DNA of 64,000 nt, taken from the sequence record MN850590.1, one strand, 5' to 3'. Below the pieces are notes generated by a model. The model was not told where the DNA came from and made no database searches. It worked only from the letters and a program-made list of their open reading frames with translations. How positions within the stretch are numbered: the stretch's first letter is position 1; each line of letters begins with the position of its first letter. Below are positions 4,117-9,480 of the stretch, in pieces. This DNA comes from Escherichia phage moha. A program made the translations under genes and the position numbers.

Positions 4117-4191
4117 GGCCCTGTAGCTCAATGGGAGAGCTGTCAGCTCATAACTGATAGGTAGCTGGATCGAAACCAGCCAGGGTCACCA
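4117..4191 (+). tRNA. tRNA, anticodon CAU (Met or Ile2 type), encoded CCA
   Basis: cloverleaf folded by hand: acceptor GGCCCTG/CAGGGTC, D arm GCTC/GAGC, anticodon loop CTCATAA, T arm GCTGG/CCAGC. Confidence 0.75.
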
Positions 4192-4194
4192 ATC

Positions 4195-4271
<77 letters not shown>

Positions 4272-7321: not shown

Positions 7322-7924
7322 ATGCGAAACCAAAATAATGATATTGACTCAATGTTCGAAGAGTTCCGAGATAAGGTAAATCCACCTACGTCTTTAGTTG
7401 ATTCATTACGATATGTTGCAACCGGACGTAAATGGTACTGGTCGTCTTCTTATGAGACCACCGAGAAAACGGCTAGCCATAGCAGAAAATCTTTATTAGC
7501 CCCAGGTATTATGATTCATGATATCGGAGCTATTGCTAAACTAGTTGCAGACCATGATATTAGATTCACCGATTTCGTTGCTCCTACATGGTCTGTTTGT
7601 TGTTTAAACACTGAATGGGAATATATCAGCGAACGCTCTAAAGATTATTATGGTTTTAGAGATAAGCTTCTGAGGTCTAATATGTTTTATATCGATACAG
7701 AAGTTCTAGTCGATAATAAAAAATATTACTTTACGTTAATCATCGATTCTGAAACTATGTATGAAGGCAAGCCTTTGCTTAAAAGAGTTGATGCTTTAAG
7801 TGCTATTGATGCGCTTTATGAAACTATGGTTGTTAGTCCTAATTTCACTAACAATTTAATCCTTGAGCAATTTATTATGGAATGTAGAGAATATGTCAAA
7901 GCCAACCCTATACATGCCAAGTAA
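7322..7924 (+). CDS. hypothetical protein
   Basis: 200 aa from ATG 7322, SD aaggag. Confidence 0.8.
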   Translation: MRNQNNDIDSMFEEFRDKVNPPTSLVDSLRYVATGRKWYWSSSYETTEKTASHSRKSLLAPGIMIHDIGAIAKLVADHDIRFTDFVAPTWSVCCLNTEWEYISERSKDYYGFRDKLLRSNMFYIDTEVLVDNKKYYFTLIIDSETMYEGKPLLKRVDALSAIDALYETMVVSPNFTNNLILEQFIMECREYVKANPIHAK

Positions 7925-8285
7925 GCCCTGGGCGTATGAATACAAGCGTAAATTAATCCCAAATGAAGTACTATTTGGCCCTATTTTAGCTTTAGCATTT
8001 TTAATCTTTATGATTATAGGAGCTGTTTTAGATTCTAGTGAAGTTATATCGTCTGATGCAGTGTTTTTACTTATTATAGCCGGGTCGTTTATTGTGCCAT
8101 TTTTATTAATGCCTATTAACTGGGTGGGATATTGGTACCAAGGACGTCATTATAGAGCTCGAGTACGCGAATGGAAAATTCAATGTGCAAAAGCTCAAGC
8201 TCAGTATGATGAAGCTGTTAAAAAGTATGAATATGAAGAAGCTATGGAATTCGTTAAGGAAATAAGATGCAAAAGCCTGAACTGA
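7893..8285 (+). CDS. membrane protein
   Basis: 130 aa; two predicted TM helices; start 7893 or 7914 uncertain. Confidence 0.65.
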   Translation: MSKPTLYMPSKPWAYEYKRKLIPNEVLFGPILALAFLIFMIIGAVLDSSEVISSDAVFLLIIAGSFIVPFLLMPINWVGYWYQGRHYRARVREWKIQCAKAQAQYDEAVKKYEYEEAMEFVKEIRCKSLN

Positions 8286-8383
8286 ATTTATGCTGTTTAC
8301 GCTTCTCAAATGATTAGTTATAATGAACTCCTAGCTAGACGTGAAAATGAAACAATCGAAAACTTTATTAAGGAATGTAGAAA

Positions 8384-8689
8384 ATGAGTAAGATTATTGA
8401 AATTAAAGTACCAGAGTTTAATGATGCCAAATCCGCTTCAGATGCAATTTATAAACTTCTGAATCAAGCTGAACGTATCGAAGAAGAAGCAACAAAGATC
8501 GCAGACCAATATGCCGTATCATTTTCTGTAGGTGATTATGGTAGCGGTCGTACTTATTATCCTAAGGGTGAAATCGTATCCCAGTGGATGAAAAATGAAA
8601 TTGAAAATAACGGTGGCGATGTTAAGCGTGAAGGTAATGGTTACATTATTACTGAAGGTGCTTGGGTTTCGTCTTCTGCGTTGTGTTAA
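8384..8689 (+). CDS. small protein, paralog family with C-terminal GWVSSS..C
   Basis: 101 aa ending GAWVSSSALC. Confidence 0.75.
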   Translation: MSKIIEIKVPEFNDAKSASDAIYKLLNQAERIEEEATKIADQYAVSFSVGDYGSGRTYYPKGEIVSQWMKNEIENNGGDVKREGNGYIITEGAWVSSSALC

Positions 8690-8698
8690 GGAATCATT

Positions 8699-8971
8699 AT
8701 GTCTAAAGAACAAACCGAACTGGCTGAAGCTGTAGCAAAAATCTATGCAGCTATTGAGGCTGCCAAAGAAATTGCTGATAAACAAAACACAACATTCAAC
8801 TTGTACCCAGCTTATGGTATGGGTGGAACCTATCATTCACCCGGACATCTTAAAGCCGATCTTGAACGTTGTACAAAAAACGGCTATGCTGAATGGGCTG
8901 ACGTTTACCAATACGACTACAACCTGAGCCTCGAAACTGGTGGTTGGGTCGCATCTTCTCACACTTGCTAA
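8699..8971 (+). CDS. small protein, paralog family with C-terminal GWVSSS..C
   Basis: 90 aa ending GGWVASSHTC. Confidence 0.75.
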   Translation: MSKEQTELAEAVAKIYAAIEAAKEIADKQNTTFNLYPAYGMGGTYHSPGHLKADLERCTKNGYAEWADVYQYDYNLSLETGGWVASSHTC

Positions 8972-8980
8972 GGAAACAAT

Positions 8981-9178
8981 ATGTCTCGTGAATTAGATTG
9001 TGCTGTACGTACGGCAGTAGCTGCCCTGGAAAACCTGTTCCAAATTGCAACAGAAGAACGCGAAGAAGTTACATTATGGATTGAAGATAACGCAGGTCTG
9101 AATCTCCAGGACGCGATCTCATTATCCCACAATAGTATCACTGTTCAAGGCTGGGTATCATCTAGTTATTCTTGCTAA
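8981..9178 (+). CDS. small protein, paralog family with C-terminal GWVSSS..C
   Basis: 65 aa ending QGWVSSSYSC. Confidence 0.75.
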   Translation: MSRELDCAVRTAVAALENLFQIATEEREEVTLWIEDNAGLNLQDAISLSHNSITVQGWVSSSYSC

Positions 9179-9183
9179 AACAG

Positions 9184-9212
9184 TTTACAACAAGATAGGG
9201 CTATGTTATAGT
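9184..9212 (+). promoter_or_regulatory. early promoter cassette (PeSL-like)
   Basis: -35 TTTACA / 17 bp / -10 TATAGT; IR atagggct..agtcctat. Confidence 0.6.
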
Positions 9213-9240
9213 AGTCCTATCAAAACAAATGGAGTCCACA

Positions 9241-9480
9241 ATGATTTATTACGAAAGTATCGGAACCAAAGTGGTTGGTAAAACCATTACTCGTGAAAAG
9301 TTTGCAAAGATATTCGATATGCGTTATAAAAAATCTGAACACAAAGGCATCCGATTCGAAGATGCGCACTGTACAATTTGCCCTTATAATGAAGACATAA
9401 ACGGTACAATCGTTCCATTGGTAGAGGCTTCACATGATGACCTCTGGGATGAATATAATATCGCATGTCGTGAAATTTAA
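9241..9480 (+). CDS. hypothetical protein
   Basis: 79 aa from ATG 9241, SD ggag. Confidence 0.7.
   Translation: MIYYESIGTKVVGKTITREKFAKIFDMRYKKSEHKGIRFEDAHCTICPYNEDINGTIVPLVEASHDDLWDEYNIACREI

Follow-up and report, generated by a model that had tools for sequence, protein, structure and literature searches.

A cysteine-terminal tail shared by small phage proteins encoded upstream of a MenT-like nucleotidyltransferase

A small gene followed by a gene for a nucleotidyltransferase of the MenT fold is an architecture that is already known. In the MenA1-MenT1 pair, the gene for the 68-amino-acid (aa) inhibitor MenA1 precedes that of MenT1 (PMC10435456), and in the type VII toxin–antitoxin system HepT-MntA the nucleotidyltransferase MntA oligo-AMPylates a tyrosine of its neighbour HepT (PMC7641770). 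Here, a comparable locus is described in a 64,000-nucleotide (nt) stretch of DNA from Escherichia phage moha (record MN850590.1), referred to below as the window. Three tandem open reading frames (ORF1, ORF2 and ORF3) encode small acidic proteins (isoelectric points, pI, 4.2-5.0) that end in W-x-x-S-S-x-x-C, and a gene for a MenT-like nucleotidyltransferase is coupled to them just downstream (Table 1). This enzyme gene is the decisive context for the three ORFs and was absent from the original prediction, which had singled out the trio. What is new relative to the described systems is the restriction of the module to phages, the DUF7275 domain of the enzyme, the arrays of one to six companion genes and the near-invariant C-terminal tag.

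The likeness to MenAT1 lies in one or more small genes followed by a MenT-fold nucleotidyltransferase. The differences are that the phage enzyme has no DUF1814/AbiEii match and carries an additional 170-aa helical domain, DUF7275; that the module is found in lytic phages and not on bacterial chromosomes; and that one to six genes, not one, lie upstream of the enzyme. MenA antitoxins lack the W-x-x-S-S-x-x-C tail, and no sequence or fold similarity was detected between the products of ORF1-3 and MenA1 or any other PDB entry. HepT-MntA is similar in that a nucleotidyltransferase of the DNA polymerase β (Pol-beta) fold is encoded beside the gene for its hydroxyl-bearing target, which in the phage locus is a proposed one. 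However, MntA is a minimal nucleotidyltransferase encoded upstream of its target, and the protein it modifies, on a Tyr, is a HEPN RNase that is entirely helical and has an Rx4-6H motif, whereas the phage proteins combine helix and beta structure and their candidate acceptors are Ser; ORF1-3 have no Pfam match to HEPN and no Rx4-6H motif in their sequences. The antibiotic nucleotidyltransferases ANT(2'') and LnuA act on small-molecule substrates and have neither DUF7275 nor a companion protein.

By hidden Markov model (HMM) comparison, ORF1 and ORF2 belong to phrog_899, ORF3 to phrog_4882 and their partner to phrog_2141, DUF7277 and DUF7275, entries that record no function, no tail motif and no linkage between small protein and enzyme; in the family databases both partners are entered as unknown only. 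No naming of the small proteins or the enzyme was found in literature searched for RB69 ORF names, DUF7275/DUF7277, phage MenT-like enzymes and DUF1814 in Straboviridae. The nucleotidyltransferases in a survey of jumbo phages (PMC7824862) are other ones, as are those in the RB69 DNA-modification paper and the Emajogi overexpression screen.

The small genes and their tail

The products of ORF1, ORF2 and ORF3 end in GAWVSSSALC, GGWVASSHTC and QGWVSSSYSC. Six-frame translation of the window gives 1674 stop-to-stop segments of 20 aa or more, among which the pattern W..SS..C$ is confined to these three ORFs; this excludes chance, an origin that the original prediction had raised as a way in which its motif could fail; the looser pattern SS..C$ adds a single 24-aa segment. 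ORF1-3 are members of a large, phage-restricted family of small proteins. A profile built from six sequences and searched against 1.84 billion representative proteins gave 149 matches (clusters of small proteins), nearly all of them 65-140 aa long and aligned to the last residue, and 136 of the 149 end in Cys. Within these 136 relatives, W(-7) is found in 135, S(-4) in 135, S(-3) in 133 and C(0) in 136; position -5 is S, A or P, and the remaining positions vary. The claim of a fixed C-terminal motif on diverging proteins therefore applies to the family as well as to the trio.

A few family members carry one extra residue beyond the cysteine. When another 197 unique tail proteins were sampled, the distance from W to C was 7 in 145 proteins, 5 in 39 (W-x-P-S-S-C) and 8 in 7, so that the constant core is W-x-x-S-S with the terminal Cys following 0-3 residues on. 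From N- to C-terminus, family members consist of a helix, a short beta unit, a linker that varies and is often acidic, and the terminal W-x-x-S-S-x(0-3)-Cys. Some repeat W-x-S-S-(G)-C or W-E-S-S-S units inside the acidic linker, and larger relatives have extra N-terminal domains, none of them recognised by domain scans, ahead of a shared C-terminal helix-strand-tail module of ~60 aa. With the tail removed, most of the bodies still fall into one BLAST single-linkage cluster, and the tail is the sole feature common to all of the small proteins. Copy number differs between phages from 0 to 6 tail genes, a variation for which the original prediction had proposed to look. Since W, S, S and C are fixed while bodies and copy number vary, a conserved C-terminal function, as first suggested, is strongly argued for.

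ORF1-3 are real genes under purifying selection, with ratios of nonsynonymous to synonymous substitution (dN/dS) against orthologues of 0.06-0.41 for ORF1, 0.09-0.45 for ORF2 and 0.0-0.41 for ORF3 (0.00-0.45 overall). Translated searches (tblastn) matched 397, 282 and 251 phage records, respectively, in Mosigvirus, Dhakavirus (JS98) and Karamvirus, in Klebsiella, Aeromonas and Yersinia phages, and in some phages that are not T4-like. Each of the three has its own orthologue, with the order kept, in Dhakavirus, Karamvirus and Klebsiella phages, and the duplication is therefore ancient. These orthologues bear out the conservation in related genomes that the tail hypothesis called for; together with the dN/dS values they contradict the description of the family as diversifying, in the sense of a recent or positively selected duplication. 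Positive or diversifying selection on ORF1-3 is accordingly unsupported.

The term paralogs, which had been used for all three ORFs, holds for ORF1 and ORF2. BLASTP detects their homology (E 3e-4 over 54 aa), which extends from the hairpin YG(S/M)G(R/G)TY as far as the C-terminus, and both are recovered by an HMM made from the family alignment. ORF3 has no YGxGG hairpin and represents a minimal helix-strand-tail form, of which hhalign aligns the last 16 residues only to the main family (probability 89%, E 2e-6). An AlphaFold2 (AF2) model of ORF1, with a predicted local distance difference test score (pLDDT) of 91.8, has a long helix at residues 15-43 and a beta meander. None of the three had a match above threshold in Pfam, NCBIfam or PADLOC.

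The trio was predicted to consist of tandem genes of 101, 90 and 65 aa, and their coordinates and plus-strand orientation proved exact; the predicted spacing of 9-10 bp was correct at its lower value, and an interval of 10 was not seen, as both spacers measure exactly 9 nt. They read TAA-GGA-nnn-nnn-ATG, with the stop codon of the upstream gene forming part of a TAAGGA Shine-Dalgarno sequence, and ORF1-3 share a single reading frame because this spacer is common to both junctions. The spacer TAAGGAnnnnnn (9 nt; window 8687-8698 and 8969-8980) represents the modal spacing, found in 50 of 108 unique adjacent tail-gene pairs of related loci (L080-L159). Its recurrence across very different phages suggests tight translational coupling or a conserved duplication junction. 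Stop-codon read-through, by which the same-frame ORFs would be fused, was ruled out, given that only 57 of the 108 adjacent pairs share a frame.

A further candidate that was rejected is a role as capsid-targeted internal proteins of the T4 type. The T4 capsid-targeting sequence comprises an N-terminus of the MKTYQEFIAE type and an LxE cleavage site; the N-termini of ORF1-3 (MSKIIEIKVPE, MSKEQTELAE and MSRELDCAV) are unlike it, and T4, which has ipI-III, is without the family. Two tail-less forms were observed. In the RB69 reference, the ORF1 orthologue RB69ORF139c (protein P0002) is annotated as a truncated protein of 71 aa that has lost the tail (...GEIVSQWYEK), probably through a frameshift or a sequencing error in the RB69 record. 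A 134-156-aa array relative, found at 1750-2166 of locus L078 and in L138, L142 and L144, ends in ...WE(E/T)SAQ.GxDYGWN(V/I); it has an internal W-E-A-S-G-G-C unit and no terminal Cys, and is a tail-less or degenerate branch of the family.

Linkage to a MenT-like nucleotidyltransferase

The small proteins and the enzyme are very probably linked as one module. In a forward test, IMG/VR was scanned with a degenerate DNA pattern for YGMGGTY, which gave 73 loci on contigs from <2 kb to 390 kb, and clustering of their neighbours brought out one outstanding family, the 300-340-aa homologues of the gene at 9509-10465 of the window. All 33 tail-gene loci of sufficient length have this partner on the same strand, downstream of the tail genes; the 11 loci that lack it all end too early on that side. 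The reverse test started from 80 loci chosen via the partner enzyme: 75 have one to six tail ORFs at most 3 kb upstream on the same strand, and only 3 of the 3758 other ORFs of these loci carry the tail. After dereplication at >=70% identity, tail genes accompany 25 of 26 enzyme clusters. The phages concerned range from 30 to 390 kb, and no other gene family common to these phage types was found among the loci, so that it is difficult to account for the linkage unless the two are functionally coupled. The distance between the last tail gene and the enzyme gene is <100 nt in many other phages, and in the window the partner starts 330 nt after ORF3 on the same strand. Separate look-ups of divergent members (P0110 and P0147) and of five matches in bacterial or metagenome-assembled genomes (MAGs) showed the same arrangement.

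The partner enzyme comprises DUF7277, a Pol-beta/MenT-like nucleotidyltransferase domain, and DUF7275, a domain that is helical and conserved. Nucleotidyltransferase motifs are matched by the invariant residues G6-S7, D25-x-D27, E69 and K125/H128/R129, and the hallmarks of the Pol-beta-type fold (G[GS], [DE]x[DE], a third acidic residue and K..R) are all present; as judged from these motifs, the predicted catalytic residues are intact. The AF2 model is confident (pLDDT 90.9). Its closest structural relatives are MenT toxins, and its structural relatives are all O-nucleotidyltransferases; a profile search of PDB sequences with the enzyme returned no MenT. Pfam reported only DUF7277 and DUF7275, with no AbiEii/DUF1814 at E<=10, and there was no match in PADLOC or NCBIfam. 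DUF7275 has no convincing structural match. It retains H194-D195-x-x-H198, E240-E241, E248-R249 and T273-S274...G278 even in actinophages, a pattern that suggests a second, possibly metal-dependent site.

The enzyme has >2,100 homologues, all unnamed, and is present in 733 of 50,697 phage records. On the bacterial side, one genome each of 185,579 species yielded five enzyme loci, all on MAG contigs and in the phage-type arrangement, and the enzyme thus appears to be restricted to phages. It is carried by T4-like, jumbo, ~100-150-kb and smaller phages and has >2,000 homologues in metagenomes; among the unexplained gene pairs of Proteobacteria phages, the one formed by these two hypothetical or DUF families is one of the more widespread. 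In Gordonia phage WilliamBoone (L076) and Streptomyces phage BillNye (L077), the enzyme homologues are ~250 aa long, have no tail-bearing gene nearby and lack both conserved DUF7275 cysteines (Y and I/V there); the neighbours of the enzyme gene include tRNA genes in WilliamBoone and a polynucleotide kinase gene in BillNye.

Possible roles of the tail

The tail is, on a modest balance of probability, the point at which the small proteins contact the enzyme. The account preferred here goes further and is held tentatively, with somewhat less than even confidence: the tail would be the handle or acceptor site of the enzyme on the small proteins. These would be protein substrates, recognised through the tail, in which the two invariant serines could offer hydroxyl acceptors for the transfer of a nucleoside monophosphate (or a phosphoryl group). 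The Trp would act as an anchor, the terminal Cys might be bound by the H-D-H/E-E site of DUF7275, and the paralogues would be distinct early or middle effectors that a single enzyme switches on or off. Serine O-nucleotidylation as the chemistry is itself a tentative proposal, possible but of rather low confidence.

Several lines of evidence are consistent with the small proteins as substrates. HepT-MntA provides a precedent for modification of a side-chain hydroxyl on the product of a neighbouring gene, and every structural relative of the enzyme is active in O-nucleotidyl transfer. In comparisons of the same phage pairs, the enzyme evolves much more slowly (dN 0.21-0.28) than the small proteins (0.32-0.53), which fits one enzyme with many diverging clients that keep one handle. 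The internal W-x-S-S-(G)-C repeats fit a short linear motif for recognition or modification.

A number of observations count against this account. Beyond synteny, we infer both the interaction and the chemistry, and the MenT toxins, which come closest to the enzyme in structure, act on the 3' ends of tRNA and not on proteins. The small gene also comes first and the nucleotidyltransferase second in MenA1-MenT1, whose small protein acts as an inhibitor (PMC10435456). Nor is the coupling of enzyme and tail absolute: one lineage (L118/119/121/151) and the actinophage homologues have the enzyme without tail genes, and a gene at 10001-10806 of a 305-kb jumbo-phage contig (L171) is the sole tail-family gene found without a DUF7275 enzyme within 10 kb. 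The trio and the enzyme of the window are not contiguous: between them lie an 83-aa gene, a hairpin and another promoter-like site. Finally, a substrate role assigns no chemistry to the invariant Cys, and the two conserved cysteines of the enzyme, Cys243 and Cys272, do not track the presence of tail genes cleanly. With regard to the L171 tail gene, a 160-aa AAA_33 (P-loop kinase) gene begins 45 nt after it and could be an alternative partner that likewise moves phosphoryl groups to hydroxyls.

The most far-reaching reading would make the module a novel phage protein-modification system, in which a MenT-like enzyme with a novel, metal-binding helical domain acts on an encoded C-terminal W-x-x-S-S-x-x-Cys tag carried by a set of effectors. 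This is unlikely as it stands; the modification might be a serine-primed addition of nucleotides or oligonucleotides, or an activation and elimination after which the terminal Cys closes a thioether ring. If true, the logic of a tag encoded together with its tagging enzyme would be without a described counterpart. A near-invariant eight-residue tag on fast-evolving proteins, beside an enzyme of the MenT-toxin fold, offers a concrete and testable hypothesis that bears on nucleotidyl transfer by phages to proteins or tRNA in host takeover or counter-defence. A tail that did turn out to serve for modification or docking would also have practical value as a compact handle.

The strongest competing account is a control of the MenAT type, in which the small proteins would be antitoxin-like inhibitors or regulatory subunits whose tail plugs the active site as a pseudo-substrate. 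The enzyme would be a tRNA-directed nucleotidyltransferase, a phage tool for shutting off or repairing translation. This account as a whole is possible but is given rather low confidence. The gene order, the MenT fold and the presence of phage tRNA genes nearby agree with such a role, and if the small proteins are inhibitors, the module would become the first MenAT-like system that belongs specifically to lytic phages. However, one enzyme would not need three to six anciently diverged inhibitors, and a set of old paralogues, all of them under purifying selection, makes more sense as distinct clients than as inhibitors that duplicate one another. The small proteins do not resemble MenA1, the enzyme does not match DUF1814/AbiEii in Pfam, and the module is confined to phages, with five MAG contigs in 185,579 genomes, which is not the distribution of a chromosomal toxin–antitoxin system.

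The other accounts of the tail are less likely than either substrates or MenAT-like inhibitors. In the first, the bodies of the small proteins bind different host or phage targets and the common tail docks on the enzyme, directing one nucleotidyltransferase to several targets. An invariant handle on bodies that vary in sequence and copy number, the extra N-terminal domains of larger members and the high conservation of the enzyme are what would be expected of such adaptors, but no body domain matches a known binding domain, and bodies that mostly form one single-linkage cluster after removal of the tail are less diverse than adaptors for unrelated targets should be; this role is quite unlikely. 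It is highly unlikely that the tail serves independently of the enzyme, be it for metal binding or redox chemistry, for oligomerisation or for mimicry of the C-terminus of a host protein, with synteny reflecting shared regulation or cassette descent. Linkage in 25 of 26 dereplicated clusters, in phages without another common gene, and the near confinement of the motif in the examined loci to ORFs beside the enzyme stand against this view, even though W, S, S and C at i, i+3, i+4 and i+7 would lie on one helix face, where a binding surface or shared metal site is possible, and one tail gene has no enzyme nearby while some enzymes have no tail genes.

The weakest account, so improbable as to be close to dismissal, is borrowed from ribosomally synthesized and post-translationally modified peptides (RiPPs): a nucleotidylated or phosphorylated tail serine would become dehydroalanine, to which the terminal Cys adds to close a C-terminal, lanthionine-like thioether ring. 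The S(-3)-x-x-C(0) spacing equals a common ring size of lanthionine and aminovinyl-cysteine (AviCys), several precursor-like genes beside one enzyme resemble the clusters of lanthipeptide/AviCys and other RiPP precursors, and the conserved His, Glu and Cys of DUF7275 could hold a thiol-activating metal; yet Pfam scans and a check for shared families found no dehydratase, cyclase or decarboxylase family (and no Lan-type enzyme) in the neighbourhood, the Ser-to-Cys spacing varies from 0 to 3 residues where a ring has a fixed size, the proteins, 65-170 aa long, fold into domains, as in the confident ORF1 model, and are not leader-core peptides, and such chemistry is known for no nucleotidyltransferase.

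Surroundings of the module in the window

The window derives from an RB69-like T4-type phage of the genus Mosigvirus and over 1.8 kb shares 97-98% identity with vB_EcoM_G2469, moskry and others. The trio region lies between the tRNA genes plus e.6-e.3 on one side and e.2/nudE/e on the other; T4 has neither tail genes nor the enzyme, and there e.3 adjoins e.2. At window positions 8286-8383, ~239 bp that hold most of gene e.3 are missing relative to most Mosigvirus relatives, so that a 98-nt gap, in which a promoter-like site is retained, comes directly after e.4 (7863-8285). The same deletion is present in a minority of relatives, including G2469, moskry, LF82-41 and ECO26.1.

Table 1. Features of the tail-gene and nucleotidyltransferase locus, in positions of the window
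Feature	Position	Strand	Product or description	Family or basis
Promoter-like site before ORF1	8296..8324	+	TTTACG-17-TATAAT, GCTT ~14 nt before the -10 hexamer	Consensus match only, putative
ORF1	8384..8689	+	101 aa, pI 4.7, YGSGRTYYP core, tail W94-C101	phrog_899, E 4.8e-22
ORF1 tail	8663..8686	+	WVSSSALC
ORF2	8699..8971	+	90 aa, pI 5.0, YGMGGTY core, tail W83-C90 (8945-8968)	phrog_899, E 5e-19
ORF3	8981..9178	+	65 aa, pI 4.2, tail W58-C65 (9152-9175)	phrog_4882, E 7.7e-37
Second promoter-like site	9184-9212		Overlaps the hairpin	Consensus scan
RNA hairpin after the trio	9194..9221	+	11-bp stem, no U tract, -16.1 kcal/mol, z -3.6
Intervening ORF	9229..9480	+	83 aa	phrog_3723
Partner enzyme	9509..10465	+	318 aa	Pfam DUF7277 (residues 2-101) and DUF7275 (120-305)
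Gene downstream of the enzyme	10537-10842		101 aa, probably membrane; conserved only among T4-like relatives	phrog_9798
Gene downstream of the enzyme	10844-11530		228 aa; conserved only among T4-like relatives	phrog_1843

The site upstream of ORF1 resembles a T4 middle promoter, and its equivalent in phage SA79RD is annotated as a T4-type middle promoter. The hairpin that follows the trio folds better than all of 200 shuffled sequences (0/200 fold as well) and is followed by an A-rich, not a U-rich, stretch; it is not a canonical intrinsic terminator, and the equivalent position in SA79RD is annotated as a terminator. The intervening 83-aa ORF has counterparts in 12 of the 80 loci selected through the enzyme, all of them T4-like contigs, and its membership of the module is doubtful. 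It contains Cys and His residues (HCTICP...H...C) that, from their pattern, might bind zinc. About 4 kb upstream of the module, at window positions 4117-4271, are genes for tRNA-Met (CAT) and tRNA-Arg (TCT), a proximity that could matter if tRNA is the target of the MenT-like enzyme.

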